Shown piece by piece: positions 1-43,900 of a stretch of DNA of 64,000 bases. The notes under the pieces were generated by a model. It saw only the letters and a list, made by a program, of their open reading frames with translations, had not been told where the DNA came from and did no database searches. Each line of letters opens with the position of its first letter. Position 1 is the stretch's first letter. This stretch comes from an uncultured Acidobacteriota bacterium (GTDB lineage Bacteria > Acidobacteriota > Thermoanaerobaculia > Multivoradales > JBCCEF01). The position numbers were made by a program, and so were the translations under genes. The stretch lies in assembly GCA_963843275.1 (NCBI GenBank), contig CAWJJM010000012.1:1519753-1583752 (forward strand). Direction: 5' to 3'.

Positions 1-1679
1 CGGAGGACGCGGCGCGGCTGGCCCGCGCCCACCCCGGCTGCGCCTTCGTCAGCCGCCAGGGTGTGTGGGCGGCCGGCGGTGCGGTGCACGTCGAGGCGGG
101 CGAGGCCGCCCCCGGGGTTCTCGAGCGCGAGCGCGAGCTGGCCGGTCTCGAGGCCGAAGTGCCCCGCCTCGAGGCCGAGCTGGCCGAGGTCGACGCGTTG
201 CTGGAGCGCCTGGTGGAGCGCCGCTCGGCGCTGGCCAAGGAATCGAACCGCCTGGGCGGCGAGGTCGCCCGGCTGCGGCAGGAGACCGCCGTCGCCGAGG
301 CGCGCCGCGAGGACGCCACCAGCCGCCACGAGCGGCTGCGGATCGAGGGCGAGACGCTGGCCGCCGAGCGCGACGAGGTCGACCGGGAGCTGGCGCGGCG
401 CACCGGCGTCCACCGCGACCTCGCCCACGAGCTCGCCGAGGCGGAGCGCCGTCACGCCGCCCTCGAGGCCGAGCAGGACGCCGCCGCGGGCGAGCTCGGG
501 GCGGCCCAGGAGGAGCGCGAGGCCCTGCGCGAGGCGAGCGCCGGGCGGCGCGGACGGCTGGAGCTGCTGACCGAGCGGCTGGAGGCGCACGACCGCGAGA
601 TGGGACGGCTGCGCGCCGAGTCGGAGGAGGGCGACCGACAGGTCCGCGAGTGGAGCGAGGAGCGCGCCCGCCTGGACGGGGGACGGCGCGAGCTCGCCGG
701 CGAGATCGAAGCCGCCGAAGCGGAGCTCGCCGCCGCCCTGGAGCAGCGCTCCGCCACCGGCGATGCCGTGGTGGCCGCCCAGGAGCGTCTGGACGCGCAC
801 CGCGGCGGCCTGCGCGAGCTGGAGACGCGGATCCACGGCGTCCGCGAGCGCCGCGAGGCGGCGCGCGCCGAGGTCGAGGAGCTGCGGGTACGGCAGGCCG
901 GGCTCGAGCACGACGCCGAGCACGTCGCCGCCACCTGGCGCGAGGAGTTCGCCGAGGCCGACGGCGCCGCCGCGACGCCGCCCCCCGCGGCCGACCCGCC
1001 CGAGCGCCTCGCCGAGCTCGAGGCCGAGCTGGCCCGCACCCGCGCCACCCTCGAGCGCCTGGGACCGGTCAACGTGCTGGCCGTCGACGAGTACGCCGAA
1101 CAGGAGGAGCGCCACGCCTTCCTCACCACCCAGCGGGCCGACGTCGCCGCCTCGGTGGAAAGCCTGCGGCGCACCATCCGCGAGATCAACCAGACCTCCA
1201 GCGAGCGCTTCCGCGAGACCTTCACCGCGGTCAACGCCAGCTTCGCTCAGCTCTTCGCCCGGCTCTTCCGCGGCGGCGAGGCGGAGATGCGGCTGCTCGA
1301 CGAGGAGGACGTGCTGGAGAGCGGCATCGAGATCGTCGCCCGGCCGCCGGGCAAGCGCCTGCAGAACATCCAGCTGATGTCCGGCGGCGAGAAGGCGCTG
1401 ACCGCCATCGCCCTGCTCTTCGCCCTCTTCCACACCAAGCCGTCGCCTTTCTGCATCCTCGACGAGGTCGACGCGCCGCTCGACGACCTCAACACGATGC
1501 GCTTCGCCGAGATGCTCCGCGAGATGGCGCCGGACACCCAGTTCATCGTCATCACCCACAACAAGCTCACCATGGAGTCGGCCGCCACCCTCTACGGCGT
1601 CACCATGGAGGAGAAGGGGGTGTCGAAGCTGGTCTCGGTGGAGCTGGAGGAGACGGCACCCACCCGCGCCACCGCCTGA
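1..1679 (+). CDS. smc: Chromosome segregation protein SMC, C-terminal portion (5' end lies left of the window)
   Basis: The frame of track ORF 63..1679 stays open back to nt 3, so the gene enters from the left edge. A long E/A/R/L coiled-coil is followed by the SMC/ABC signature 'LMSGGEKALTAIALLFA', Walker B 'FCILDEVDAPLD' and 'FIVITHNKLTM'. Confidence 0.9.
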   Translation, partial: EDAARLARAHPGCAFVSRQGVWAAGGAVHVEAGEAAPGVLERERELAGLEAEVPRLEAELAEVDALLERLVERRSALAKESNRLGGEVARLRQETAVAEARREDATSRHERLRIEGETLAAERDEVDRELARRTGVHRDLAHELAEAERRHAALEAEQDAAAGELGAAQEEREALREASAGRRGRLELLTERLEAHDREMGRLRAESEEGDRQVREWSEERARLDGGRRELAGEIEAAEAELAAALEQRSATGDAVVAAQERLDAHRGGLRELETRIHGVRERREAARAEVEELRVRQAGLEHDAEHVAATWREEFAEADGAAATPPPAADPPERLAELEAELARTRATLERLGPVNVLAVDEYAEQEERHAFLTTQRADVAASVESLRRTIREINQTSSERFRETFTAVNASFAQLFARLFRGGEAEMRLLDEEDVLESGIEIVARPPGKRLQNIQLMSGGEKALTAIALLFALFHTKPSPFCILDEVDAPLDDLNTMRFAEMLREMAPDTQFIVITHNKLTMESAATLYGVTMEEKGVSKLVSVELEETAPTRATA

Positions 1680-1729: not shown

Positions 1730-2245
1730 TCAGCGCGAGGGCGTGGCTCGGCGGCGGCCGCGGGGGCGGGGGCGGGGGACGAGGATGCCGAGGGCGGCGC
1801 CGAGCATGGCGCCGGTGGTGTTGAACAGGACGTCGTCGACGTCGCTGGCGCGGCTGGGCATCCAGAGCTGGGCGGTCTCGATCCCCGCCGACAGCACCAG
1901 GGCGACCGCGGTCGCCACCAGGAAGCGGCGACGGCGGGTGCGGCCCGGGTGGGCCGCCGCCACGGTCAGCCCGACCGGCACGAACAGCAGCAGGTTGCCG
2001 ACCACGTCGACCAGCAGGTAGCGGGCGGCGGCGGCGGCGTGCACGCAGTCGTCGGCGAGCACGCAGCGCAGCGCCGCCAGGTGGTGCCGCAGCGGCACGA
2101 CGTTGCGGCCGGTGAGGTTCTGCCAGCCGACCAGCTCGTCCTCGCGCAGGGTGAGCCCGACGACCAGCGCCACCGCCAGCAACGCGGCGACGGCCCAGAG
2201 CAGCCGCACCCGCTCCGCCCGCCGGCGCGTCCGCCTAGCGCCCAC
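1730..2245 (-). CDS. VanZ-like family membrane protein
   Basis: Last ~171 codons of track ORF 1730..2629. Hydrophobic segments are present, plus the VanZ-like strings 'GNLLLFVPVG' and 'ETAQLWMPSRASDVDDVLFNTTGAMLG'. I chose the GTG at 2245 as start because the upstream part is Arg-rich shadow. The start is uncertain. Confidence 0.6.
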   Translation of the reverse strand: MGARRTRRRAERVRLLWAVAALLAVALVVGLTLREDELVGWQNLTGRNVVPLRHHLAALRCVLADDCVHAAAAARYLLVDVVGNLLLFVPVGLTVAAAHPGRTRRRRFLVATAVALVLSAGIETAQLWMPSRASDVDDVLFNTTGAMLGAALGILVPRPRPRGRRRATPSR

Positions 2246-3567: not shown

Positions 3568-4470
3568 ATGGAGACCCAGCATTCCCACGGCGGCGACGGC
3601 CACTCCCACGGGCGCGGTGCCGGCCGGCGCCGCCTCGCCTGGACCCTCGCCCTGGTGGCCGCCTACACCGCGGCGGAGGCCGTCGGCGGCTGGCTGACCA
3701 ACTCGCTGGCGCTGCTCGCCGATGCCGGCCACATGCTCTCGGACGCCGGCTCCCTCGGGCTCGCCCTGTTCGCCCTGTGGATGGCGCGCCGGCCGCCCAC
3801 CGCGCAGCGCACCTTCGGCTACCACCGCATGGAGATCCTCGCCGCGCTGGTCAACGGCGCCGCCCTGGTGGCGATCGCCGTGTTCATCGCCGTCGAGGCG
3901 ATCGCGCGCCTGGCGCAGCCGCCGGAGGTGGCGGCGGGCGGCATGATGGCGGTCGCCGCGGGCGGGCTCGCGGTCAACCTCGCCGGCCTCGCGATCCTGC
4001 ACGGCGGGCGCGACCAGAGCCTCAACCTGCGCGGCGTCTGGCTGCACGTGCTCACCGACACGCTCGGCAGCGTCCAGGCGATCGCCGCCGGGGCGCTGAT
4101 CTGGGCCTTCGGTTGGCGCTGGGCGGACCCGGTCGCCTCGCTCGCGATCTCCGTGCTGGTGGTGTGGTCGGCCTGGTCGCTGCTGCGCGAGACGGTGGGG
4201 GTGCTGATGGAGTGGGCGCCGGGTCACATCGACGTCGACCGGGTCCGCGACGAGCTGCACCGGGTGCCCGGCGTGCTCGAGGTCCACGACCTCCACGTCT
4301 GGACCATCACCAGCGGTCTCGAGTCGCTGTCGGCCCACGTCGTGGCCCGCGACCGCCCCCAGGAGGACGTTCTCCAGGAGATCCGCAGCACGCTCCACCG
4401 CCGCTTCGGCATCGAGCACGTCACCATCCAGGTCGAGCCCGAGGAGTTCGGCGGGTGCGAGAGTTGCTGA
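3568..4470 (+). CDS. Cation diffusion facilitator (CzcD/ZitB-like) metal efflux protein
   Basis: ATG at 3568 inside track ORF 3283..4470. There is a His-rich N-terminus 'HSHGGDGHSHG' and six TM segments. CDF motifs present: 'SLALLADAGHMLSD', 'FGYHRMEILAAL', 'HVLTDTLGS'. The C-terminal domain reads 'VHDLHVWTITSG'. Confidence 0.9.
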   Translation: METQHSHGGDGHSHGRGAGRRRLAWTLALVAAYTAAEAVGGWLTNSLALLADAGHMLSDAGSLGLALFALWMARRPPTAQRTFGYHRMEILAALVNGAALVAIAVFIAVEAIARLAQPPEVAAGGMMAVAAGGLAVNLAGLAILHGGRDQSLNLRGVWLHVLTDTLGSVQAIAAGALIWAFGWRWADPVASLAISVLVVWSAWSLLRETVGVLMEWAPGHIDVDRVRDELHRVPGVLEVHDLHVWTITSGLESLSAHVVARDRPQEDVLQEIRSTLHRRFGIEHVTIQVEPEEFGGCESC

Positions 4471-6301: not shown

Positions 6302-8107
6302 CTAGGTGAGCGGCCAGACGATGGGCAGCACCAGCATCACCACCGCGAACAGCAGCACCAGCAGCGGCGCGCCGACCCGCCAGTAGTCGCGGAACGAGTA
6401 ACCGCCCGCGCCCATCACCAGCAGGTTGACGGGGTGGCCCAGGGGCGAGGCGAAGGCCATCGAGGTGCCCAGGGCCACGGCCATCGCGACGCTGCGCGGC
6501 TCCATCCCCGCCTGGGTCGCCGCGGTGATCGCCACCGGTGCCATCATCGCGGCCACCGCGGCGCCGTTGATCGCCTGCACCAGCACCGCGGTCAGCAGGA
6601 ACAGACCGGCGAGCACGGCGCGCGGTCCCCAGCCACCCACCAGGGCGAGTACCGCGTCCGCCATCAGGGTGGCGGCGCCGGTCTTGGTCAGGGCCACGCC
6701 CAGCGGCAGCATGCCGGCGACGAGGAAGACGGTGCGCCACTCCACCGCCTGGTAGGCCTGGTCCATGGTGAGGAGGCCGACGAGCACCATCGCCAACGCC
6801 CCGGAGAGGATCACCTCTCCCGTGGGCAGCGGCGCCAGGATGGCGACCGCGAGGGTGACGACGGTGATGCCGAGGCCGAGCCAGCGGCGGCCGCGGGGCA
6901 GCGGAGCGCGGCGCTCCCGCTCCTCGTGCAGCAGGATGAGGTCCGGCTCGTCCCCGAGCACGTCGAGGCTCTTGCGCTCCCCCTGCAGGAGCAGGCCGTC
7001 GCCGAACTCCAGCGCCAGGTCGGGGAGGTCGTCGGTCACCGGCTGTCCGGCCCGCCAGACCGCCAACACGGTCATCCCGAGGCGGCTGCGGAAGTGCGCC
7101 TCGCGCAGGGTCTTGCCGACCAGCGACGAGCGCGGCGACAGCATCGCCTCGACCACCACCGTGCGCCGCGACTCGAGGTCCTGCTCGCGCCAGTCGCGCG
7201 CCGGCAGGATCTCCAGGTAGGGCTCGACGTCGCGCTGGCGGAAGTCGGCCTCGTCGCCCTGGAACACCAACACGTCGCCCTCCTCGACCACGGAGTCGGG
7301 GGCCAGGGTGTGGATCGTCCGCTCGCCCCGCTCGATCGCCACCACGCTGAGGCGGTAGAGCTCGCGCAGGGTGCTTTCGGCCAGGGTGCTGCCGACCAGT
7401 CGCGAGCCCGCTGGCACGCGGGCCCGGAAGAGGCGCTCCTCGAGGCGGTAGATGCCCACCAGGTCCGGGGTCGAGGCGGGGAAACGCTGGGCCATCGACT
7501 GTGCCGGCAGCCGCCGGCGCCCGACCAGCGCCATGTAGAGGATCCCGACGGCGACGATCGGCAGGCCGACCGGGGCGAAGTCGAGCAGGCCGAAGCCCGC
7601 GCTTCCGGAGTCGCGCAGCAGGCTGCCCACCACGATGTTGCTGGTGGTCAGCAGGGTCGCCATGCCGCCCATCACCGTGGCGAAGGCGAGCGGCATCAGC
7701 AGCCGCGACGGGCTCACCCGGGCGCGCTGCGCCGCCGCGGAGACGCCGGGCAGCAGCACCGCCGCCGCGGCGATGTTGTTCATCACCAGCGAGAAGGTGG
7801 CACCGGCCAGCATCACCACCACCACCATCCTCGTCTCGCTACCGCCGGAGACGCGCGCGATCCAGCCGCCGGTGAGCTCGGCGATGCCGCTGCGCTGCAG
7901 GCCTTCGGCGAGGATGAAGATGGCGAGGATGGTGATGACCGCGGATCGGCTGAAGCCGGAGAAGGTCTCCTGCGGGGTCAGCACGCCGGTGGCGCCGAGG
8001 ACCAGCACCGCGAGCAACGCCACCACGTCCGGGCGCAGCCGGTCGCTGACCATGAGCACCGCCGCCACCACCAGCACCGCCAGGGTGATCCCGGCCGCGG
8101 CGCTCAT
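6302..8107 (-). CDS. SLC13/DASS-family anion permease with two central TrkA-C (RCK C-terminal) domains
   Basis: 601-aa track ORF. It has N- and C-terminal polytopic membrane halves. Two soluble repeats sit between them ('VPAGSRLVGSTLAE...VVAIERGERT' and 'LSPRSSLVGKTLRE...VLAVWRAGQP'), typical of TrkA-C inserts. Confidence 0.85.
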   Translation of the reverse strand: MSAAAGITLAVLVVAAVLMVSDRLRPDVVALLAVLVLGATGVLTPQETFSGFSRSAVITILAIFILAEGLQRSGIAELTGGWIARVSGGSETRMVVVVMLAGATFSLVMNNIAAAAVLLPGVSAAAQRARVSPSRLLMPLAFATVMGGMATLLTTSNIVVGSLLRDSGSAGFGLLDFAPVGLPIVAVGILYMALVGRRRLPAQSMAQRFPASTPDLVGIYRLEERLFRARVPAGSRLVGSTLAESTLRELYRLSVVAIERGERTIHTLAPDSVVEEGDVLVFQGDEADFRQRDVEPYLEILPARDWREQDLESRRTVVVEAMLSPRSSLVGKTLREAHFRSRLGMTVLAVWRAGQPVTDDLPDLALEFGDGLLLQGERKSLDVLGDEPDLILLHEERERRAPLPRGRRWLGLGITVVTLAVAILAPLPTGEVILSGALAMVLVGLLTMDQAYQAVEWRTVFLVAGMLPLGVALTKTGAATLMADAVLALVGGWGPRAVLAGLFLLTAVLVQAINGAAVAAMMAPVAITAATQAGMEPRSVAMAVALGTSMAFASPLGHPVNLLVMGAGGYSFRDYWRVGAPLLVLLFAVVMLVLPIVWPLT

Positions 8108-8849: not shown

Positions 8850-10046
8850 ATGAGCGGAGCGGACCCTCTCGAGGTGGTCGTGGTCGGCGGCGGCATCGCC
8901 GGCCTGTCGCTGGCGCTGGCACTGCGGCGGCGCGGGCACCGGCCGACGGTCGTCGAGCGGGCGCCGGGCCTGCGCGACGCGGGCTACATGATGGACTTCT
9001 TCGGGCCGGGCTTCACCGCCGCCGAGCGCCTCGAGCTGCTCCCGGAGCTGGCCCGCATCCACTTCCCGATCGACCGGCTCGCCTTCGTCGACCGCGACGC
9101 CGAACGCTTCGCGCTCCCCTACCCGCTGCTGCGCCGGCGCTGGTTCGCCGACCGCCACTTCAACTTCCTCCGCGGCGACCTCGAGCGGGTGCTCTACGAG
9201 CGGATCCGCGACGAGGTGGAGGTCCGGTTCGGCTCCACCGTCGTCGCGTGGGAGGACGGCGGCGACCGTCTCGCCGTCACGCTCGACGACGGCACCGCCC
9301 TCGAGGCCGACGCGCTGGTCGGCGCCGACGGCGTCCACTCGGCCCTCCGCGAGCGGCTCTTCGCCACCGACGGACCGGGCGCCCTGCGCCGGCTCGGACT
9401 CCGCATGGCCGCCTGGGTGCTCGCCGACCCCGAGCTCGGCGAGCGGATCGGCGCCTCCTTCCAGACCCTCACCGTCCCCGGGCGCCAGGTGTCGGTCTAC
9501 CCCATCCGCGGCGGCCGACTCGCCACCTTCTTCCTGGCCGAGGACGGCCGCGGACCGGCGCCGGGCAGCGCCCCGCCGGCGGCGGTGCTCGCCGCGACCT
9601 ACGGCGACCTCGGCTGGGTCGTGCCGCGTCTGCTCGCCGGCCTGCCCACCGACGGAAGCCTCCTGCACGACGAGGTCGAGCAGGTGGAGCTGCCGCGCTG
9701 GACGCGGGGGCGGGTGGGGTTGCTCGGCGACGCCGCGGGCTGCGTCTCGCCGCTCGCCGGCGAGGGCGCCTCGCTCGCCATGGCCGCCGGCTGGGTGCTC
9801 GCCGAGGAGCTCGACCGCTCGCCGGGAGACGTCGCGGCGGCGCTCGAGCGCTACGCCGACCGCGTGCGGCCGAGGGTGGTGCGGGAGCAGGCCTCCGGCC
9901 GGCGGATCGCGCGCTGGTTCGTGCCCCCGGACCGGCTGCGTCTGACCCTCCGCGATCTGGTCTTGCGCGCCTCGCTCCTGCCGCCGGTGGCGGCGCTCGT
10001 GCGCCGCGGCTTCGCGGCGTCCGCGGGCCTCCTCGACGGCGGCTGA
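8850..10046 (+). CDS. FAD-dependent monooxygenase (UbiH/PHBH-fold)
   Basis: Track ORF. Rossmann motif 'VVVVGGGIAGLSLALAL', 'ADALVGADGVHSALR', and the second FAD motif 'GLLGDAAGCVSPLAGEGASLAM'. Confidence 0.85.
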   Translation: MSGADPLEVVVVGGGIAGLSLALALRRRGHRPTVVERAPGLRDAGYMMDFFGPGFTAAERLELLPELARIHFPIDRLAFVDRDAERFALPYPLLRRRWFADRHFNFLRGDLERVLYERIRDEVEVRFGSTVVAWEDGGDRLAVTLDDGTALEADALVGADGVHSALRERLFATDGPGALRRLGLRMAAWVLADPELGERIGASFQTLTVPGRQVSVYPIRGGRLATFFLAEDGRGPAPGSAPPAAVLAATYGDLGWVVPRLLAGLPTDGSLLHDEVEQVELPRWTRGRVGLLGDAAGCVSPLAGEGASLAMAAGWVLAEELDRSPGDVAAALERYADRVRPRVVREQASGRRIARWFVPPDRLRLTLRDLVLRASLLPPVAALVRRGFAASAGLLDGG

Positions 10047-10090
10047 CACCGGCCGGCCGTAGGGCTCGAAAAGGTCCGCCGAGGACGCTC

Positions 10091-10119
10091 TTGACCCCCC
10101 GTCGGGTCTGCCCTAGACT
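10091..10119 (+). promoter_or_regulatory. Sigma70-type promoter candidate TTGACC-N17-TAGACT
   Basis: Hexamers read directly at 10091-10096 and 10114-10119, with a 17-nt spacer. It lies 45 nt after the stop of the preceding gene and ~230 nt before ATG 10349. Confidence 0.45.
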
Positions 10120-10127
10120 GCCGCCGA

Positions 10128-10210
10128 TCAACCGATCCAGAGCAAACCCGTCGCGAGGCGGGGGCGCAAAGCCGCGGGTCTCGCGAGAGACTGCCGGGCC
10201 GCTCGGGGCG
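10128..10210 (+). promoter_or_regulatory. Candidate GEMM-I (c-di-GMP-I / cGAMP-type) riboswitch aptamer
   Basis: 'AGAGCAAACC' (10139-10148). Hairpin CCCGUC-GCGA-GGCGGG (10147-10162). 'GGCGCAAAGCC' (10163-10173). Second GCGA-capped hairpin (10172-10197). Closing helix CCGA/UCGG (10132-10135 with 10203-10206). The order and spacing match the GEMM-I consensus as I remember it. No covariance-model run was possible. Confidence 0.55.
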
Positions 10211-10227
10211 ACTCGATTCGTGTGGTA

Positions 10228-10252
10228 CCGGTGCGATCGGCGCGCCGGATTT
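10228..10252 (+). terminator. Terminator-like hairpin in the leader (possible riboswitch expression platform)
   Basis: CCGGUGCG-AUCGG-CGCGCCGG forms an 8-bp stem with one G-U pair, followed by AUUU. The U-tract is short, as is common in GC-rich genomes. Confidence 0.4.
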
Positions 10253-10348
10253 GGAGTCCATCGCGGAAGGGCCTGGGAGCCACCGAGCGGCGCGGAGCGC
10301 GTGCGAAGTGTCTTCCGATCGGCCCCCGCAGAAAGGAAGACGCGGAAC

Positions 10349-10840
10349 ATGATGCAGTCCCTCTCGTTGAGGCGCTTGTCCCTGGGCACCGTCGCCCTCG
10401 CCGCCGTCGCGGCGCTCGGCGGGGTGGCCTCGGCCGAGGAGCCGGCCGCCACCGCGGCCCCCCCGGCACACCTGATCACGGTTCCCCACGCCACCCTGCT
10501 CAGCGGCCCGGCGACGCTCGCCGGGGGTGACAGCGGGGTCGGCGAGGGGATGCGGGCCGCGATCGATCCGGTGACCGGCGAGCTCCGGCCGCCGTCCGCC
10601 GCCCAGCTCCGGCTTCTCGACGCGCAGTCGGCCACCCTCGGCCTCCGCACCGCCGCCGCCCCCGTGCAGGTCGAGCGGCCCGACGGCACCGTGATGATGG
10701 CCCTCTCCGCCGAGCTGATGAACTACTCGATCGCCGAGATCGGGCTCGATGGAACGGTCTCGTTCCGCTGCGTCGACGGCCCCACCCAGGCCGACATCGA
10801 CGTCTACACGCCGGGCGCCGGCACCCGCGAGGTGAAGTAG
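10349..10840 (+). CDS. Small secreted protein of unknown function
   Basis: ATG-ATG at 10349, in the tail of the 1843-aa shadow ORF 5309..10840. SD-like 'GAAAGGAAG' upstream. Signal peptide 'LSLGTVALAAVAALGGVASAEE'. The stop is 2 nt before the next start. Confidence 0.75.
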   Translation: MMQSLSLRRLSLGTVALAAVAALGGVASAEEPAATAAPPAHLITVPHATLLSGPATLAGGDSGVGEGMRAAIDPVTGELRPPSAAQLRLLDAQSATLGLRTAAAPVQVERPDGTVMMALSAELMNYSIAEIGLDGTVSFRCVDGPTQADIDVYTPGAGTREVK

Positions 10841-10842
10841 CG

Positions 10843-12240
10843 ATGCGTCGCATCCTCAAGCCGCGCGCGGTCGCGCTGTTCGCTGCCCTCGTCCTCGTCG
10901 TCGCCGTCGCGACGACGGCTTCCGCCGCCACGCTGTACCTGATCAACTTCGACCCGCCCGGTGCCGGCCTCAACGACCCGACGCCGGCGGCCCCCGTGGG
11001 CGGCAACCCGGGCACCACCCTGGGCGACCAGCGCATCAACGTCTACCTCTATGCCGCAAACCTCTGGGGGAGCGTCATCGACAGCTCGGAGCCCATCTAC
11101 GTCGGCGCCAGCTTCGCGCCCCTCTCGTGCACGCCCACCTCGGGCACCCTGGGCTCGGCCGGGACGACCTTCATCTTCCGTGACTTCCCGGGCGCGCCGC
11201 TGGCCGGCACCTGGTACCACTCGGCGCTCACCGACGCTCTCTACGGGGGCGATGGCGCCCCCGGCTACGTCGACATCAACTCCCGGTTCAACTCGAGCAT
11301 CGGAACGGATCCCGGCTGCCTGACGGGGCGCAACTGGTACTACGGCCTCGACGGGAACGAGGGCAACGACTTCGACTTCCTCGCCGTCGTCACCCACGAG
11401 ATCGCCCACGGCCTCGGCTTCTCGAACTTCGTCAACGAGGCCACCGGGGCGATGCAGAGCGGCTTCACGGACGTCTACAACCACTTCACCTACGACACCA
11501 CCACGGGGATGACCTGGGAGGACATGGCGACCGACGCGGACCGTGCCGCGGCCGCCGTCAACGACCGCAACGAGGTGTGGATCGGACCCGAGGTCGCCGC
11601 CGAGGCGCCGTCGGTGCTCGGACCGCGCCCGTCGCTGGTGGTGCTCAACCCCTTCGACGTCGCCGGCAGCTACGAGGTGCAGACGGCGACCTTCGGGGCG
11701 CCGCTGGGCACCGGCGGCGGGGTGAGCGGCCTGATGGTGGTGGCCAACGACGGGACCGGCGACACCGCCGACGCCTGCGAACCGCTGATCACGCCCACGC
11801 CGGGCAAGATCGTGCTGGTGAACCGCGGCGCCTGCACCTTCGTCCAGAAGGCCGCCAACGCGCAGGCGGCCGGCGCCAAGGGGATCGTGGTGGCCAACAA
11901 CACGGCGGTGGGCCTCCCCGGCATGGGCGGTACCGACCCGTCGATCACCATCCCCGCGATCGGCATCACCCAGGCGCTCGGCGCCGCGCTGAAGGCGGCG
12001 TGGAAGCCGAACCTCAAGCTGGTGCTCGACAGCAACGTGCTGGCGGGGACGCAGGACGGCTGGCTGCGGATCTACGCGCCGAACCCGGTGGCCTCCGGCT
12101 CGTCCGGCTCGCACTGGGACGTGACGGCGACCCCGAACCTGCTGATGGAGCCCTTCATCAATCCCGACCTGGCGCCCACGGTGACGCTCGACCTCACCCC
12201 GGCCCTGCTCCAGGACATCGGCTGGACGCTGCTGCCCTAG
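10843..12240 (+). CDS. Secreted zinc metalloprotease, leishmanolysin(M8)-like motif, with inserted PA (protease-associated) domain
   Basis: Signal peptide 'ALFAALVLVVAVATTASA'. Zinc site 'VVTHEIAHGLGFSNF', the HExxHxLGFS pattern of leishmanolysin-type enzymes. PA-domain stretch 'GKIVLVNRGACTFVQKAANAQAAGAKGIVVANN'. Confidence 0.85.
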   Translation: MRRILKPRAVALFAALVLVVAVATTASAATLYLINFDPPGAGLNDPTPAAPVGGNPGTTLGDQRINVYLYAANLWGSVIDSSEPIYVGASFAPLSCTPTSGTLGSAGTTFIFRDFPGAPLAGTWYHSALTDALYGGDGAPGYVDINSRFNSSIGTDPGCLTGRNWYYGLDGNEGNDFDFLAVVTHEIAHGLGFSNFVNEATGAMQSGFTDVYNHFTYDTTTGMTWEDMATDADRAAAAVNDRNEVWIGPEVAAEAPSVLGPRPSLVVLNPFDVAGSYEVQTATFGAPLGTGGGVSGLMVVANDGTGDTADACEPLITPTPGKIVLVNRGACTFVQKAANAQAAGAKGIVVANNTAVGLPGMGGTDPSITIPAIGITQALGAALKAAWKPNLKLVLDSNVLAGTQDGWLRIYAPNPVASGSSGSHWDVTATPNLLMEPFINPDLAPTVTLDLTPALLQDIGWTLLP

Positions 12241-12322: not shown

Positions 12323-13717
12323 TCAGGACACGGCGTCGCCGGCGGCCACGCCGGCGGGACGGGCGCCCACCTCGAGCTGCCAGCGCAGGTGCCGCACCGC
12401 CTCGGCGGTCATCGTCTCCGCCAGGACCGCCTTCTGGAAGACCAGCAGCGCCGCCAGCGCGTGCTGCGGCACGTCCTGGGCCGCGAAGACGAACTCCATC
12501 AGCCGCGCCATGCGCTTCGCCTCGATGGTCCTCCCCTGCTCGAGGTAGAGCGCGGTGAGGTCGAGCGACAGGATGGCCGCCGACAGGTTGCGCCGCTGCT
12601 CGAGGAAGCCGTTGCGCGAGCGCAGCAGCAGCTCCTCCGCCTCCCCCAGCCGCGAGCAGCCCCAGGCGATGCGGCCGTCGAGCTGGTGCTTGAGCGGCAG
12701 CGCCGCGCCGTCGCGCAGGCGTTCGCGGTAGAGCGGCTCGTGGCGGCGGACCAGCTCGTCGGCCTCCGCGAAGCGCTCCAGGTCGCACAGCGCCAGGGCG
12801 AGGTTGGAAGTGGCCTGCAGGTAGAGGTCGGGGTGCTCGGTCGCCGCCACCGTGCGCAGCACTTCGCGCTGGGTCGCCGCGGCCTCCTCGAGCTCGCCGC
12901 TGCGGCGCTCGACGATGCCCCGCTTCACCAGCACCTGTGCGAGCTCCTCGGCGGCGCCCTCGCTCCGGTAGAGCAGCGCCGCCTGGTCGAGCAGCCGCAG
13001 CGCCTCGCCGAGCCGCCCCTGGTCGGCGTTGAGCGACGCCTCGAGACGCGACACCTCGGCGTGCACCAGCGGCTCGTCGAGGACCTCGCGCGCCAGCCGG
13101 GCGCGCAGCGAGTTGAAGGCCTGCTCGGCCGCCCGGAGGTCGCCGGCGACCCGCAGGGCGTTGCCCCGCCAGGCCTCGGCGCGCACCCGCAGCACGCGGC
13201 CCCACGAGCGGTCCAGCGCCCCCGGCGTCCACAGCACCACCACCGGCACCAGCTCGGCGAGGTTGATCGCCTCGACGGCGTTCTGGTGCACCTCGCGCCG
13301 GCAGCGCTCGAGCAGCAGCTCGGCGAACGCGCGGGAGCGGAAGCGGGAGCGGGCGCGGACCACCCGCTCCTCGCGCTGCTCCGCCGGCAGTGCGAGGAGC
13401 ACGGCGAGGTCCTTGCGCGCGCGCCGGCGCTCCTCGCGCACCCGCTGCACCCACCCCGCCGCGCCGTTCTCCGCCGGCCGCAGCGAGGTCACGGAGCGGG
13501 GGTCGGGGAGGGCGTTCTCCGCCGGAGCGTCCGCCGTCGTCGCGTCGGCCTCCGCCTCGAGGAGGTCGCCGTGGCCGTCGCCCCGCAGCAGGGCGAGCGT
13601 CTCGCCGCACTCGGGGCACACCTCACCCAGGTGCGCGAGGATCGCCCGCAGCAACGTCTTCGGCGGTAGATGACCCTCGACCACGAGGCTGAGGAGCTCC
13701 AGATCGATGTGGCGCAT
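12323..13717 (-). CDS. TPR-like repeat protein with N-terminal Cys/His motif
   Basis: ATG at 13717 ('MRHIDLELLSLV') inside track ORF 12323..13795. N-terminal 'HLGEVCPECGE'. The remainder is helical-repeat (TPR-like) sequence. Confidence 0.8.
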   Translation of the reverse strand: MRHIDLELLSLVVEGHLPPKTLLRAILAHLGEVCPECGETLALLRGDGHGDLLEAEADATTADAPAENALPDPRSVTSLRPAENGAAGWVQRVREERRRARKDLAVLLALPAEQREERVVRARSRFRSRAFAELLLERCRREVHQNAVEAINLAELVPVVVLWTPGALDRSWGRVLRVRAEAWRGNALRVAGDLRAAEQAFNSLRARLAREVLDEPLVHAEVSRLEASLNADQGRLGEALRLLDQAALLYRSEGAAEELAQVLVKRGIVERRSGELEEAAATQREVLRTVAATEHPDLYLQATSNLALALCDLERFAEADELVRRHEPLYRERLRDGAALPLKHQLDGRIAWGCSRLGEAEELLLRSRNGFLEQRRNLSAAILSLDLTALYLEQGRTIEAKRMARLMEFVFAAQDVPQHALAALLVFQKAVLAETMTAEAVRHLRWQLEVGARPAGVAAGDAVS

Positions 13718-13757
13718 GCGGCTGTCTCCCGGTCGTGTGAATGCTTCCTGTCTTAGT

Positions 13758-13786
13758 AGTATCGCTGACGGCCGTTTCGTAGACAA
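13758..13786 (-). promoter_or_regulatory. Sigma70-type promoter candidate TTGTCT-N17-GATACT (minus strand)
   Basis: Read on the minus strand in the only AT-richer patch upstream of ATG 13717. The -10 is at 13763..13758 and the -35 at 13786..13781. Confidence 0.35.
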
Positions 13787-14028
13787 GAAACCCACAATTC
13801 CTCGAAATCACCCCTCCCCGCCCCCCCCCGGCAGCGCCACCCCGCCCCCCGGCGGGCCGCGGCGCGCCCCGAGAGGCGGCGCGCCGCGCCCGGTGCGCCG
13901 CCCAGCCAGGCGGCGGAGACGGGGGGAGTGGCGGGAGCGCGAGGGAGGGAGGCTGAGGCGACCTCGAGGACGCCGCAGGCCTTCCGGGAGAGCGGCGACG
14001 CCGCAGATCGATCTGCCTCACCCGTCGC

Positions 14029-38142: not shown

Positions 38143-39084
38143 TCAGTACCGCCCGAGGTCCTTGCCCACCACCACCTCGCCGCCGTAGCCGCCCTCGCGG
38201 ATGCCGGCGAGGAGCTCGTCCTCGGTGGCGCCGCGGAAGCCCACGTGGGTGAGCACCAGGAGCTTCGGGCGGGCGCGGGCCGCCAGCGCGCCGAGCTCGA
38301 CGTCGGAGGTGTGGAAGCTCTCGAGGTACTGCGGCCAGAGCTCGCCGCCGGGGCGGTCCTCCGGGGCGACGCGCAGGTGGGGATACGCCTCGTGCACCAG
38401 GACGTCGACCCCGCGGGCGGCCTTCTCGAGCTGCGGCGCCGGGCGGGTGTCGCCGGAGATCACGATCGAGCGGTCGGGGGTGTCGACGCGGTAGCCGTAG
38501 GCGTGCTTCCAGCTCCCGTGGAGCACCGGGATGGCGGTCACCCGCACCCCGTCGCGGTCGTAGACCACGCCGGGGCCGACCTCGTGCACGTCGACCCGCT
38601 CGCCGCCGGCGACCTCGCGCTCGAGCCCCGCGGTGCGGATCTCGATGTCCTCCGCCCAGGCCGCCATCAGGTGGGCGGTCATCGCCGCCAGGCCGGGCGG
38701 CCCGTAGACGTCGAAGGGGGCCGCCCGCCGCATCAGCCACGAGGTCAGGATCAGATCCGGGTAGCCGAGCGTGTGGTCGCTGTGCAGGTGGGTGACGAAG
38801 AGGGCCGTCACCCCGCCGATCGGCAACCCCGCCGCGTTGAGCTGCCGCTCGACCCCGACGCCGGCGTCGAAGAGGAACACCCGCGGGCCGACGACGACCG
38901 CGGTGGCCGGGCCCTGGCGGGCCGGGTCGGGGTAGGGGGTGCCGGTGCCGAGCAGGACCACCTCCGTCCGCACCGCCGCGGGGGCGGCGGCCGGCGGCGG
39001 CGGGTCCTGTCGGGGCGCCGCCGCAGCCGGCAGGGCCAGGGCGGCGCTGAGCAGGAGGGCGGCGAACGGCGCGACATCGGTCAT
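38143..39084 (-). CDS. Secreted MBL-fold metallo-hydrolase
   Basis: Signal peptide 'FAALLLSAALALPAAAAP'. Metallo-beta-lactamase motif 'FVTHLHSDHTLGYPD'. Later 'VLHGS' and 'LVLTHV'. Confidence 0.85.
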   Translation of the reverse strand: MTDVAPFAALLLSAALALPAAAAPRQDPPPPAAAPAAVRTEVVLLGTGTPYPDPARQGPATAVVVGPRVFLFDAGVGVERQLNAAGLPIGGVTALFVTHLHSDHTLGYPDLILTSWLMRRAAPFDVYGPPGLAAMTAHLMAAWAEDIEIRTAGLEREVAGGERVDVHEVGPGVVYDRDGVRVTAIPVLHGSWKHAYGYRVDTPDRSIVISGDTRPAPQLEKAARGVDVLVHEAYPHLRVAPEDRPGGELWPQYLESFHTSDVELGALAARARPKLLVLTHVGFRGATEDELLAGIREGGYGGEVVVGKDLGRY

Positions 39085-39170: not shown

Positions 39171-39452
39171 ATGTGCCGCAACATCAAGCGCCTGCACCAC
39201 CTCGACCCGCCCGCCACCCGCGCCGAGATCCGCGACGCCGCCCTGCAGTTCGCGCGCAAGATCAGCGGCCGCAGTCCCTCGGCGGCCAGCGCCGCCGCCT
39301 TCGACCGGGCGGTCGGCGAGATCGCCGCGGCCAGCGAGCGCTTCCTGGCCGCGCTGAGCACTCCCGGCGCCCCGCGGAGCCGCGAGGAGCTGGCGGCGCG
39401 CGCGAGGGCCCGGCGGGCCGCCGCTCAGTCCTCCCCCACCCGCAGGTCGTAG
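39171..39452 (+). CDS. DUF2277-like small protein
   Basis: 'MCRNIKRLHHLDPPATRAEIRDAALQFARKISG' matches my memory of the DUF2277 N-terminus. The last 28 nt overlap the convergent anti-sigma gene. Confidence 0.7.
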   Translation: MCRNIKRLHHLDPPATRAEIRDAALQFARKISGRSPSAASAAAFDRAVGEIAAASERFLAALSTPGAPRSREELAARARARRAAAQSSPTRRS

Positions 39453-40252
39453 CGGGCCACCGGGACCGCCGCACCGTCGCGGAGGCCGGAGAGGACGAGG
39501 GTGGCGCGCCCCGCCGGCAGGCTGCCCGGCGGCAGCAGCACCGTGAACTCGCCGCCCGGTTGGCGCTCGAGCCCGGTCGCCTCCCACGACGGGCGCCCGT
39601 CGGCGTCGAGCAGCTCCAGACGGTAGTCGGCGAAACGGCGCGCGTCCTCGCTGAGCAGGATCAGGGTGACGGGGACGTCGCGGTCCGGCACCCGGGTGAC
39701 CGCTGCGGACGCCCCCGCCGCGCGCACGGCGTAGTCCTCCGGCAGCGCCTCCAGAGCGGCGGCGTTGACCCGCGGGCGGGAGAGCTCGGCGACCCGCTTC
39801 TCGAGGCGGGCGACGCGCTGCCCCATCGAGACGGCGGCGCCGCCGAGGAGCACCAGGGCGAGCACGGCGGCGGCCGCCAGCCAGCGGGCCCCGGGCATCC
39901 GCCGGCGCCGCTCGGCGGCGCGCCGGGAGCCGGCGACGGCCGCGAACGACGGCAGGTCGCGGCTCTCCCGGGCCGCCGCCAGGTCCTCGCGGCAGCGGGG
40001 GCAGACCGCGAGGTGTCGGTCGACCGCCTGCCGCTCCTCCGCCGGCAGTGGATCGCCGAAGGCGAGCGCCACCAGCCGTCCGCTGGCCGGGTGCGCGGTG
40101 GCGAACAGCTCGCCCACCCGCGCCGTCTCCTCGGCCTCGCCGCGGCAGCTCGGGCAGCTCGCCAGGTGGGCCCGCACCTCGGCCGCCGCCACGGCGCCGA
40201 GTGACCCGTTCATCAGGAACGGGAGCTGATCGATGGCGTCGGCGCAGTTCAT
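39425..40252 (-). CDS. Anti-sigma factor with two zf-HC2 (HxxxCxxC) motifs, one TM helix and a periplasmic domain
   Basis: 'AHLASCPSC' and 'RHLAVCPRC'. TM helix 'WLAAAAVLALVLLGGAAV'. ATG 40252 overlaps the ECF sigma stop (ATGA). Confidence 0.8.
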   Translation of the reverse strand: MNCADAIDQLPFLMNGSLGAVAAAEVRAHLASCPSCRGEAEETARVGELFATAHPASGRLVALAFGDPLPAEERQAVDRHLAVCPRCREDLAAARESRDLPSFAAVAGSRRAAERRRRMPGARWLAAAAVLALVLLGGAAVSMGQRVARLEKRVAELSRPRVNAAALEALPEDYAVRAAGASAAVTRVPDRDVPVTLILLSEDARRFADYRLELLDADGRPSWEATGLERQPGGEFTVLLPPGSLPAGRATLVLSGLRDGAAVPVARYDLRVGED

Positions 40253-40848
40253 CCGCTTCCCCCTGCAGACCCGGACGCCTGGGCGGCGCCGGCGTTACCG
40301 CCCTCCTCGAGCTCGCGGCGCAGGGCGGCGGCGCGCCGGCGGCAGCGCAGCAGCCGCACCCGCAGCGCCCCGGGCCGGACGCCGAGCCGGGCGCTCATCT
40401 GCTGGTAGCTCAGCCCGTCGAGCAGCAGGCTCCACATCTGGCGGCAGTGCTCGGGAAGATGCTCGAGGACCCGCGTGAAGCCGGCGTAGCCCTGCCGGGC
40501 CGCGGCACGGTCGAAGGGCGACGGCGCGTCCGAGGCCGGCGCCACGCCCTCGAGCCCGGTCCAGCGCCAGCGGCGCCCGGAGCGGACGCGGTCGAGGCAG
40601 CGGTGGGCGGCGGCGCGCCGTACGTAGGTCTCGAGCCGCGCCTCGCCCCGGAAGCGATCGGCGCGCAGCGCCTCGGTGAGGGCGACCAGCACCTCCTGGA
40701 CCACGTCGTCGACCTGGTCGCCGAGCCGGCGGCGGAACGGAATGGTCGCGTACCGGCTCCAGGCGCTGAGCGTCTCGACGGCCGCAGGCTCGCCGTCGAG
40801 AAAGGCGGCCGCAAGCACTCGGTCCTCCGACGTCATCCTCACCCCCAT
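40249..40848 (-). CDS. ECF-type RNA polymerase sigma factor
   Basis: Region 2 'VDDVVQEVLVALTEAL...ARLETYVRRAAAHRCLDRVRS'. Region 4 'LSYQQMSARLGVRPGALRVRLLRCRRRAAAL'. The start (ATG 40848 or 40836) is uncertain. Confidence 0.8.
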   Translation of the reverse strand: MGVRMTSEDRVLAAAFLDGEPAAVETLSAWSRYATIPFRRRLGDQVDDVVQEVLVALTEALRADRFRGEARLETYVRRAAAHRCLDRVRSGRRWRWTGLEGVAPASDAPSPFDRAAARQGYAGFTRVLEHLPEHCRQMWSLLLDGLSYQQMSARLGVRPGALRVRLLRCRRRAAALRRELEEGGNAGAAQASGSAGGSG

Positions 40849-40981
40849 GACCCGCCGCCGGCGCTCCGTGCCGGCCCGCGCGGCGAGCACATCCCCCGGG
40901 AACATCGCGAGCCTCAGTCTAGCGGAGGACTGCGCTCCCCCGGCGCACTGTCGTACCATTGCCGGGCCACACCGAGGAGCC

Positions 40982-43900
40982 ATGCCGTCGATGTCGAACC
41001 GCTCCGCGGCGCGCCGGGTCGGACCTGTCGCTGTCGCCTTCGTCCTCTCCGCCGTCGCCGCCCGCGCTGCGGCGCCGGCGCGGCCCCTCGACGAGGGCGC
41101 CACCCTCCGCTTCACCGTCGCCCCCGCCGAAGAGCGCACCTGGCAGCTCGAGCTGGCAGCGGGCGAGCTGCTCCACGTCGAGGTCGACCAGGTGGCGGCG
41201 GACGTGGCCCTCACCCTGCGCGACGCCGCCGGCGCCGACCTGTGGCGCAGCGACGTCCAGCCCTGGGCGTCCGGCATCGAGGAGGTCTGGGACCTGACCG
41301 ACGCCGCGCGGCGGCGGACGATCGCGGTGCAGGGGGTCGGGAGCCGCCCCGGCGAAGTGGTGCTCGAGGTGAAGGCGCGGCACTCCGCCTCGGCGGCGGA
41401 CCGGCGGCGCTTCGCCGCCGAGGAGGCGCTGCGCAGCTCCTACTCCCTCGACTCCGCCACCGACGTCGAAGCGTCGCTGGCCGCGGCGCAGCGCGCCGCC
41501 GGGCTGTTCGCCGAGCTGGGCGTCACCGCCAAGCAGGGCGTCGCCCTGCGGCGCTCCTCCCAGCTCGTCAGCCTCCTCGGGCGTCCCGGCGAAGGCCTCG
41601 GGTGGCTGGACCGGGCGATCGCCCTGGCGCAGGCGGCGAACGACCACGACGCCGAGGCCGCGGCGCGGATCGACCGCTCCGTCGCCCTCTTCTACCGGGG
41701 CGACCGGGCGGCGGCCCTCGAGGAGAGCCGGCGGGCGCTCGCCGCGGCGCAGGCGGCGGGATCTCCCACCCGCACCGCCAAGGCGGAGACCAACCTCGCC
41801 CTCTTCCTCCAGCACGCCGGCGACTACGCGGAGGCCTCCCGTCACCAGCAGGACGCCCTGCGCCGCTACCGCGAGCTCGACGCCGGCCAGCCCGCGGTCT
41901 ACGCCGAGGTCAACCTGGCCGGGCTCGAGCTGCAGCGCGGCGACGCCCAGCGCGCGCTCGACCTCTACCTCGCGGCGCGGGATCGCCTCGAAGCGATGGG
42001 CGACCGCCGGGCGCTGGCGGTGGTGGTCGACGACATCGGAGCCGTCCAGGGGCAGCTCGGCGACGTCGAGGGCGCCCTGGTGGCCCACCGCCAGGCGCTG
42101 ACCCTGCGCCGCGAGCTGGGCGACGCCCGCGGCATCACGCAGTCGCTGCTCAACGTCGGCGCCTCGGTCGACGAGCTGGGGCGGCACGCCGAGGCGGCCG
42201 AGGTGCTCGCCGAGGCCGCCGGGGAGGCCGAGGCGGCGGGCGACCGCAGCCTCGCCGCCACCGCGCGGCGCTACCGGGCGAGCGCCCTGCTGGCCGCCGG
42301 CGACCCCGCGGGCGCCCGCGAGCAGGTGGCACCGGCCGTCCGGGCCCACCACGAGCTGGGGAGCCTCCCGGAGGAGGCGGCCGACCGGCTGGTGCTGGCG
42401 CGGGCCCTCGAGGCGCAGGGCGACCGCGACGCTGCCGCCGCCGCGTACCGGAGGGCCGCCGAGGAGGCGGAGCGTCTCGACGTCGTGCGCGTGGCGGCGG
42501 AGGCGCGCTACCGTCAGGCGCGCCTGCTCGCCGACGCCGGCGAGGCGACCGCGGCTCGGGAGGCGCTGGACCGGGCCCTCACCCACGCCGAGTCGATCCG
42601 CTCGCGCGCCCCCTCCGACCGCCTGCGGACGACCTACTTCGCGTCGGTGCGGGACCTCTACGACCTCGCTCTCGAGCTGACCCTCGGCGCCGACGCCGCC
42701 GCGGCGCCGCCGGCAGCGCTCGCCGCGGGGTTCGCGCTCGCCGAGCGGGCCAGGGCGCGGGCGCTGCAGGACTTCCTGCTCGCCGCGCCGGCCGCCGCCC
42801 GCGGCGGGCTCGACGCCGACCTGGTGCGGCGCCAGGACGAGGTCCGGCGCCGGCTCGAGGACCTCTCGGGCGAGCTGCTGGCGGCCGAGGCCGGGGCGGG
42901 CGGCGGCGCCGTGGACGCGAGCCCCGCGGCGGCCGACGGGGAGGTGGCGGAGATCCGCGGCCGGATCCTGCAGGCCCAGCTCGAGGAGCAGAGCCTCGAC
43001 CGGCGGCTGCAGCGCGACGAACCGGTGCGCGGCTCCTTCCTCACCGCCGCCCCCGCCGACCTCGCGCAGGTCCGCGCCGCGCTGGGCGACCGGGTGCTGC
43101 TCGAGCTCCACGTCCTGCCGCAGCGGAGCTGGGCCTTCGTCCTCACCGCCGACGACCTGCGCGCGGTCGACCTGCCGGGCGGCGACGTCCTCGCCGGACC
43201 GGTGGCGGAGCTGCGCGCCCAGCTCGCCCGCCCCGGGCGGCGCACGGCCCGCTTCGTCGCCGCGGCACGCGCCCTGTGGAACGACCTGCTCGCTCCCGTC
43301 GCGGCGCTGCTGCCGCCGGGCCGCGATCTCCTGGTGAGCCCGGACGGCGTCCTGCACGACCTGCCGTTCGGGGCCCTGCTCACCGCTCCGGTGGCCCCGA
43401 ACACGCCGTGGGCGCGGATGCCCTTCCTCGCCCGCGAGCGCACCCTCTCCTACACCCCCTCGGCCGCGGTGCTGCGGACCTTGCGGGCGGCGGGCGGCGC
43501 CGCCGCCGGGGACGGCACGGTGGTGGCCTTCGCCGATCCGCCGCTCCCCGCGGACACGGCCCGGGGCACCGATGCCCGGGCGCTCGGCGCGGCGGTGCGC
43601 GCCCTGGGCGGCGGGCTGTCGCCGCTGCCCTACAGCCGCGAGGAGGCCGCCGCGGTGGCGGCCGTCTTCGGACCGCGCCGCAGCCGGGTGCTGGTCGGTC
43701 CGGACGCCGCGGAGAGTCGCCTCAGCGAGCCGGCCGTGCGCCACGCCGGAGTGCTCCACTTCGCCACCCACGGCTACCTCGACCCGGTGCTGCCCAGCCA
43801 GTCCGGCCTGCTGCTGGCCGCCGGCGGCGGCAGCGACGGCTTCCTCCACGTCGGCGAGATCCTGCGCCTCGACCTCGACGCCCGCCTGGTCGTGCTGTCG

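Follow-up and report, generated by a model that had tools for sequence, protein, structure and literature searches.

Introduction

In the GEMM-I riboswitches, catalogued in Rfam as the c-di-GMP-I family (RF01051), position 20 of the aptamer reads the first base of the cyclic-dinucleotide ligand (PMC6140456, PMC9481103), and C92 forms a Watson-Crick pair with the second guanine of the ligand (G20 and C92 in the numbering of the Vc2 aptamer; PMC6140456). The variant class GEMM-Ib is defined by an A at the equivalent of G20 (PMC6140456, PMC9481103), and the aptamer Gs1761 is described as selective for 3',3'-cGAMP (cyclic GMP-AMP, hereafter cGAMP; PMC6140456). Here we describe a GEMM-I aptamer with an A at position 20 in a stretch of 64,000 nucleotides (nt) of contig CAWJJM010000012.1, referred to below as the window. 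As the 5' leader of an operon, the aptamer precedes two genes, one for a small secreted protein and one for a secreted metalloprotease with an HExxH motif and a PA domain. It is a known class with a known A20 pocket variant, found in a lineage outside Geobacter and ahead of a secreted metalloprotease operon.

Published A20 aptamers extend from about 1000-fold selective for cGAMP (Gs1761, Gm0970) to bispecific (Vc2 G20A, Cbe 1-2; PMC6140456, PMC8835794). The G20A mutant of Vc2 binds cyclic di-guanosine monophosphate (c-di-GMP) at 53 nM and cGAMP at 120 nM, and Cbe 1-2 of Clostridium beijerinckii, where A20 is natural, binds c-di-GMP at 30 nM, more tightly than cGAMP at 463 nM (PMC6140456). The A variant of a Desulfobacca acetoxidans aptamer gained affinity for cGAMP with a slight loss for c-di-GMP (PMC9481103), and in Gmet_0970 the A20G substitution alone flips selectivity to c-di-GMP (PMC6456294). 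A20 is thus necessary but not sufficient for cGAMP selectivity (PMC6140456, PMC9481103): it is needed for cGAMP recognition and is by itself no predictor of selectivity. Secreted metalloproteases under this class are also known: the 5' untranslated regions of PPEP-1 and PPEP-2 carry c-di-GMP-I riboswitches (PMC8610288).

The aptamer of the window shares with Vc2 and RF01051 the three-helix junction fold, the GCAAA and CGCAAAG strands, the A47 and C92 bases, a P2 hairpin capped by a GNRA loop and the location in a 5' untranslated region, but it has an A instead of a G at position 20. Its compact P3 helix lacks the CUAA(A/G)...AUG tetraloop-receptor motif of many Firmicutes members of c-di-GMP-I. 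With the Geobacter GEMM-Ib riboswitches (Gs1761/pgcA and Gmet_0970) it has in common the A at the G20 equivalent, canonical A47 and C92, a compact P3 and a probable ON logic; however, its host is probably acidobacterial and not a member of the Desulfuromonadales, it precedes a secreted protease instead of cytochromes or pili, its leader shows no evident terminator-type platform and its orthologs flip to G20. The bispecific A20 aptamers (Vc2 G20A, Cbe 1-2 and the cluster-3 aptamer of D. acetoxidans) resemble it in A20, in a standard GEMM-I scaffold, in not coming from Geobacter and in having near-identical G20 relatives. Affinities for both ligands were measured for these aptamers (PMC6140456, PMC9481103), whereas the aptamer of the window is known from its sequence. 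PPEP-1 of C. difficile and PPEP-2 of Paenibacillus present the same arrangement of a GEMM-I aptamer ahead of a secreted zinc metalloprotease (PMC8610288), but in Firmicutes hosts and with an unrelated protease family (PPEP as opposed to HExxH with a PA-domain insert).

Results

A GEMM-I aptamer upstream of the operon

An earlier note on this DNA, made by eye, had proposed a GEMM-I riboswitch, possibly of the A20 type, with its own promoter and a terminator hairpin, and had suggested a covariance search against RF01051. All its coordinates (promoter, P1, junctions, hairpins and ATG at 10349) are correct in the sequence, and the search bore out the candidate. The whole window was scanned with 4227 Rfam families at their curated gathering thresholds. 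RF01051, whose gathering score is 35, matches 10131-10206 on the plus strand with 45.6 bits (E=1e-05), over the full length of the model (1-87). This is the sole Rfam match at gathering threshold across the 64 kilobases (kb): no further family, those of tRNA and rRNA included, reached it in 1-64000. Standard Rfam annotation would tag the aptamer as c-di-GMP-I, and as a riboswitch it is ordinary.

The 23 modelled aptamer pairs are all canonical in the window. A covariance model that we built from 38 relatives with compact aptamers (model R1) scores 75.9 bits on 10132-10206 and has no second match in the window. In the alignment of these 38 relatives, 87.7% of the cells are paired under the GEMM-I structure, compared with 35-47% when the partners are slid by 1-3 columns. 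Double-sided changes occupy 154 cells (54 in shuffles) and are seen in 16 pairs, and the covariation score of 0.457 (0.172 shuffled) was not reached by any of 500 shuffles. The covariation in these relatives supports the fold. P1 itself (CCGA/UCGG) is compensatory relative to the usual CG/CG of c-di-GMP-I, its inner G-C and A-U pairs standing in for C-G and G-C in the same columns. The GEMM fold is retained in eight orthologous leaders. The segment 10132-10206 is a genuine GEMM-I cyclic-dinucleotide aptamer, and its parts are listed in Table 1.

The best-scoring model of the clan, for the window as for its orthologs, is RF03167 (c-di-GMP-I-GGC), with which they share a compact, GC-rich architecture. 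It gives 54.8 bits on 10132-10207 and 56.6-57.5 bits on the orthologous aptamers, in each case higher than RF01051 but under its own cut-off of 59. Membership of the GGC variant was rejected on this score and on A10168 (CGCAAA), where the model has its defining G (CGCGAA); the window also differs from the variant at position 20, where it has A and the model G. The aptamers of L002, L153, L154 and L155 likewise lack the defining G at the A47 position. The higher score of RF03167 probably reflects the common compact, GC-rich build. If thresholds were relaxed, RF03167 could be wrongly assigned to GEMM-I aptamers that are compact and high in GC.

The ligand pocket carries an A at position 20

In the alignments to three covariance models (RF01051, RF03167 and R1), A10141 stands directly 5' of the pairs G10142-C10167 and C10143-G10166, at a position where the consensus of RF01051 and RF03167 is G. 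The placement of an A at the G20 equivalent, which had been made by eye with the caution that it might be off by one, is settled by the agreement of the three models. Where a c-di-GMP-selective pocket has the canonical G20, the aptamer thus has A10141, while the two other pocket bases, A10168 and C10202, are those expected for A47 and C92. The pocket signature of the window is A20/A47/C92. A47 is the intercalating base of the Vc2 structure; the assignment of A10168 uses the alignment register together with that structure. An A at position 20 would let the pocket accept 3',3'-cGAMP and would tune its affinity.

Orthologous leaders alternate between A and G

Position 20 is A in 3 and G in 5 of the eight orthologous leaders of the operon (Table 1). 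The junction reads CCGA-UCCAG-A-GC in the window and L002, CAAG-A-GC in L156, CAAG-GC in L153 and L154, and CAG-G-GC in L155, L007 and L159. The length of the junction is 6 nt in the A20 leaders and 5 nt in most of those with G20. A neighbour-joining tree of the proteases shows the two states interspersed, which requires at least two changes. The two most distant orthologous operons (L157 1747-2026 and L158 1856-2067) have shorter upstream gaps (~280 and ~210 nt), in which no GEMM aptamer was detected even with the search filters off. Riboswitch control of the operon was gained or lost within the clade.

We also scanned metagenomes with the pattern CCAG-R-GC...GGGGCGCAAAGCC, in which position 20 is free. 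All 24 matches have G, and none precedes the operon. The same operon was found behind none of 144 pattern-derived loci (0/144).

Ligand specificity

We lean slightly towards a sensor that is bispecific or responds to c-di-GMP over a selective cGAMP sensor, given the behaviour of A20 aptamers outside Geobacter, their occurrence in many phyla and the alternation of A and G among the orthologs. In Vc2 G20A, in Cbe 1-2 and in the aptamer from Desulfobacca, A20 by itself confers binding of both ligands (PMC6140456, PMC9481103).

According to the main alternative, the aptamer would belong to GEMM-Ib proper, with the selectivity for 3',3'-cGAMP seen in Geobacter, and the A/G alternation would reflect lineage-specific rewiring of the protease operon between cGAMP and c-di-GMP. 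This is possible but clearly less probable. It is consistent with the A at the G20 equivalent next to canonical A47 and C92, with the flip of selectivity by A20G in Gmet_0970 (PMC6456294) and with the statement that A is "commonly observed" here in variants responsive to c-AMP-GMP (PMC9481103). The uniform G of the 24 metagenomic relatives with a CCAG junction further argues that the A is not random drift in this subfamily. On the other side, the nearest protease to that of the window belongs to L153 (74-77% identity), yet L153 has G20, and the tree needs its two or more switches. No GG[DE]EF, GGDDF, EAL or HD-GYP motif was found in the six frames of the 64-kb window, and no cyclic-dinucleotide enzyme among ~30 of its genes scanned with Pfam. 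The literature searched gave no link of Hypr GGDEF enzymes to Acidobacteria, and the genes behind the riboswitch do not belong to the exoelectrogenesis type.

Several points nevertheless weigh against a sensor that is bispecific or responds to c-di-GMP. The lineages of the window and of L002 both retain A20, although their proteases are only ~70% identical (~30% divergence), and the compact P3 without the CUAA(A/G) motif resembles that of the Geobacteraceae and Desulfuromonadales A20 aptamers L008, L088, L113 and L119; both observations fit a selective cGAMP sensor equally well. The protease tree covers eight sequences, joined by neighbour-joining without support values. The ligand assignment itself draws on sequence and analogy.

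Expression platform

Thermodynamic models of the leader gave the Shine-Dalgarno sequence AAAGGAAG (10332-10339) an unpaired probability of 0.17 in the free leader and 0.55 when the aptamer was enforced. In the minimum-energy fold, part of this sequence is sequestered by a pre-AUG hairpin that encloses the conserved CCGCAGAAAGG, and analogous hairpins around CCGCAGAAAGG are predicted in L153, L154, L155 and L007. This hairpin and the element CGCGG(U)GGAGG, to which element X of the window corresponds, are the two platform features common to the five leaders. Within element X, CGGAAG (10264-10269) is complementary to CUUCCG (10312-10317), the anti-Shine-Dalgarno strand. In minimum-energy folds, the candidate anti-aptamer segment pairs with 10198-10206, which comprises the base of P3, C92 and the 3' strand of P1. 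The platform of L156 is just 32 nt long, and its P1 3' strand GCAGGAUG is a perfect complement of CAUCCUGC, the 8 nt that immediately precede the AUG. In view of the modelled shift in Shine-Dalgarno accessibility, the complementarity in L156 and the lack of a canonical terminator in the window or in L156, we infer that translational ON control via the ribosome-binding site looks likelier than termination.

The riboswitch would then be an ON switch acting mainly at translation initiation. In the ligand-free state, ~10281-10297 would capture the aptamer's 3' half, and the GUCUUCC/GGAAGAC hairpin would hold the Shine-Dalgarno sequence. Stabilisation of P1 by the ligand would free the downstream segments, which together with CGGAAG could compete for the anti-Shine-Dalgarno strand and expose the ribosome-binding site.

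Other results weigh against this model. The 9-nt complement of the aptamer is marginal, as 93 of 2000 shuffles reach 9 nt (p about 0.05), and the pre-AUG hairpin shows almost no covariation. Under the same modelling, Shine-Dalgarno accessibility is unchanged in L002 (0.40 and 0.41) and L007 (0.39 and 0.39). The model comes from thermodynamic folding of a 74% GC leader with an insignificant fold z-score of -1.48; the minimum-energy fold of the whole leader does not contain the GEMM fold, and enforcing the aptamer is 15 kcal/mol less stable than that fold. A platform mechanism uniform across the orthologs was rejected, given the accessibility shift in the window but not in L002 or L007 and the weak covariation of the hairpin.

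Alternatively, the hairpin at 10228-10248, which begins 22 nt after the aptamer, could with the following AUUU act as an intrinsic terminator under ligand control, perhaps one of those poor in U that have been proposed for high-GC bacteria. The earlier note had suggested this hairpin as a possible terminator arm. The hairpin is indeed there, with a stable GC-rich stem followed by UUU, and four orthologs (L153, L154, L155 and L007) have a hairpin at the equivalent position that shows a few compensatory changes; in addition, Geobacter GEMM-Ib switches act via terminators (PMC6456294). Its role as a terminator did not hold up. A terminator scan of 9500-11000 called no site, the 3-U tail occurs only in the window and is missing from five orthologs, the orthologous hairpins lead into C/G-rich sequence without a U run, and the unpaired probability of the hairpin is 0.24 whether the aptamer is free or enforced, so no anti-terminator alternative is visible. 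An intrinsic terminator in its simple form was therefore rejected (no U-tract, negative scan, a stem not mutually exclusive with the aptamer), and we regard a ligand-controlled terminator of any type as improbable.

Promoter and conservation of the leader

The promoter TTGACC-17-TAGACT is the only promoter-like site in 9500-11000, where shuffles expect 0.0, and each of the seven leaders examined for it (the window, L002, L153, L154, L155, L156 and L007) has the motif TTGAC-N17-TAnnnT ~12 nt upstream of P1. The leader thus has its own promoter, as first suggested. Transcription probably starts near 10126, a few nt before P1.

The aptamer of the window shares 83-90% identity with its counterparts in L002, L153 and L154, compared with ~50-56% for the rest of the leader and only 45-53% for protein 1. 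Taken with the promoter at a fixed distance, these values show that promoter and aptamer are under purifying selection. That the aptamer could be a decaying or chance GEMM-like sequence without regulatory role, as its minimum-energy fold in isolation (GEMM fold not recovered, z-score -0.75) and the two distant operons without an aptamer might suggest, is highly improbable in view of a score above the Rfam gathering threshold, canonical bases in every modelled pair, an aptamer much better kept than the flanking leader and downstream protein, and the conserved promoter at constant distance. For an aptamer held by tertiary structure in a 74% GC sequence, we judge minimum-energy folding to be uninformative and not counter-evidence.

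The operon and other genes of the window

The first gene encodes a secreted-looking protein with a post-PEP-CTERM-1 domain. In its public record (P0001) the product is 162 amino acids long, starts at 10352 and is 100% identical, with an N-terminus one residue shorter. The second gene encodes a secreted zinc metalloprotease, which matches the PA domain by sequence and in the PDB and has a weak match to the metalloprotease family NF038122. As the minus strand carries the gene that follows (12323-13795), the unit consists of two genes. The gene pair is conserved at all orthologous loci, which are on metagenomic contigs and contigs of metagenome-assembled genomes (MAGs), and the protease homologues number 4403. 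The closest named ones belong to MAGs of Thermoanaerobaculia (68% identity), Acidobacteriota and Holophagales, which makes an acidobacterial origin of the window likely. The window is ~75% GC.

Elsewhere in the window, 38143-39084 (minus strand) encodes a protein of the metallo-beta-lactamase fold with a weak Pfam match to Apyc1 (anti-Pycsar; 23.6 bits, cut-off 50), probably a generic hydrolase of this fold. A zf-HC2 anti-sigma-like protein (39425-40252, minus strand) adjoins a TPR-CHAT protein of 1167 amino acids with a caspase-like domain (40676-44179, plus strand); this pair is unrelated to the riboswitch.

A20 aptamers in other genomes

A scan of a genome collection for the A20-type core returned at least 120 matches. 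The matches listed represent Firmicutes, Chloroflexota, Actinomycetota, Myxococcota, Gammaproteobacteria, Planctomycetota, Desulfuromonadales and further groups. The model confirmed 123 aptamers in the first 100 of the at least 120 loci, with A at position 20 in 98 and G in 20, as called for each match by a sequence rule.

Many of the A20-pattern loci hold a G20 aptamer within 8 kb, often in tandem, ~70-300 nt apart. In L104 (A, 4106-4189; G, 3791-3874) and L077 (A, 6860-6950; G, 7019-7109) the two aptamers are near-identical save for position 20 and the preceding base, and A20 and G20 also occur together in L070, L040, L048, L050, L032 and L094. Such tandem aptamers could provide two-input logic or staggered affinities. 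The aptamer of L073 (1855-1963), assigned to a Nitrosopumilus sp. bin, is near-identical over its first ~70 bases to that of L124 (~581-704) from a Rubripirellula sp. planctomycete MAG, and the archaeal-assigned contig is probably mis-binned. In L117, near-identical aptamers face each other on opposite strands at a contig end (1061-1151, plus; 1192-1282, minus), which looks like a palindromic assembly artefact and not biology.

Table 1. Features of the riboswitch and operon in the window, and aptamers of the orthologous loci
Feature	Position	Strand	Evidence or remark
Sigma-70-type promoter	10091..10119	+	-35 TTGACC 10091-10096, 17-nt spacer, -10 TAGACT 10114-10119
GEMM-I (c-di-GMP-I class) aptamer	10132..10206	+	RF01051, RF03167, model R1, covariation
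P1, CCGA/UCGG	10132-10135/10203-10206	+
J1/2, UCCAGA	10136-10141	+
Junction strand AGAGCAAA	10139-10146	+
Junction pairs	G10142-C10167, C10143-G10166		invariant
P2 hairpin CCCGUC-GCGA-GGCGGG	10147-10162	+	stem 10147-10152/10157-10162, GCGA loop
Junction strand GGCGCAAAGCC	10163-10173	+
P3	10170-10200	+	GCGA loop 10183-10186
A at Vc2 G20 equivalent (Gs1761 A14)	10141	+	RF01051, RF03167 and R1 alignments
A at Vc2 A47 equivalent	10168	+	RF01051 and RF03167 alignment; not the G of the GGC variant
C at Vc2 C92 equivalent	10202	+	conserved C of the ...GC-C... 3' junction, both Rfam models
Leader hairpin CCGGUGCG-AUCGG-CGCGCCGG	10228..10248	+	8-bp GC-rich stem, 5-nt loop, then AUUU 10249-10252
Element X, CGCGGAAGGG, candidate anti-sequestor	10262..10271	+	leader comparison; matches CGCGG(U)GGAGG of orthologs
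CCGAGCGGC, candidate anti-aptamer segment	10283..10291	+	perfect 9-nt complement of 10198-10206
Pre-AUG hairpin, GUCUUCC/GGAAGAC	10310..10341	+	10310-10316/10335-10341; minimum-energy fold
Gene 1, 163-amino-acid secreted-looking protein, post-PEP-CTERM-1 domain	10349..10840	+	NCBIfam NF047450, E=8.1e-21
Gene 2, 465-amino-acid secreted zinc metalloprotease, HExxH (THEIAHGLGF), inserted PA domain	10843..12240	+	Pfam PA, E=1.1e-18
Window, aptamer upstream of operon			position 20 = A
L002-L005, aptamer upstream	L002 3765-3842		position 20 = A; L002 matches RF03167
L156, aptamer upstream			position 20 = A
L153, aptamer upstream	1817-1893		position 20 = G; matches RF03167
L154, aptamer upstream	1173-1250		position 20 = G; matches RF03167
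L155, aptamer upstream	1788-1889		position 20 = G; matches RF03167
L159, aptamer upstream			position 20 = G
L007, aptamer upstream			position 20 = G
L157			no aptamer, search filters off
L158			no aptamer, search filters off

Discussion

What besides position 20 sets the selectivity of GEMM-I aptamers between c-di-GMP and cGAMP, and how specificity shifts in nature, is a known problem. The locus described here offers natural, near-identical aptamers that differ at the pocket base and precede the same genes in related genomes: the aptamers of the window and L153 are 85% identical, and L156, L154 and L155 add to the series. Of all that the analysis yielded, these ortholog pairs with A and G are the most useful, as they could show whether the flips rewire the signal or tune its affinity.

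A stronger claim would be that the A20 leaders (those of the window, the L002 lineage and L156) are selective for cGAMP and the G20 orthologs for c-di-GMP, which would amount to repeated single-base rewiring in a probable Acidobacteria clade. We regard this as doubtful; if true, it would mean housekeeping 3',3'-cGAMP signalling in a phylum with none described. Through this locus, a secreted metalloprotease of a high-GC lineage that has been little studied is connected with cyclic-dinucleotide signalling.

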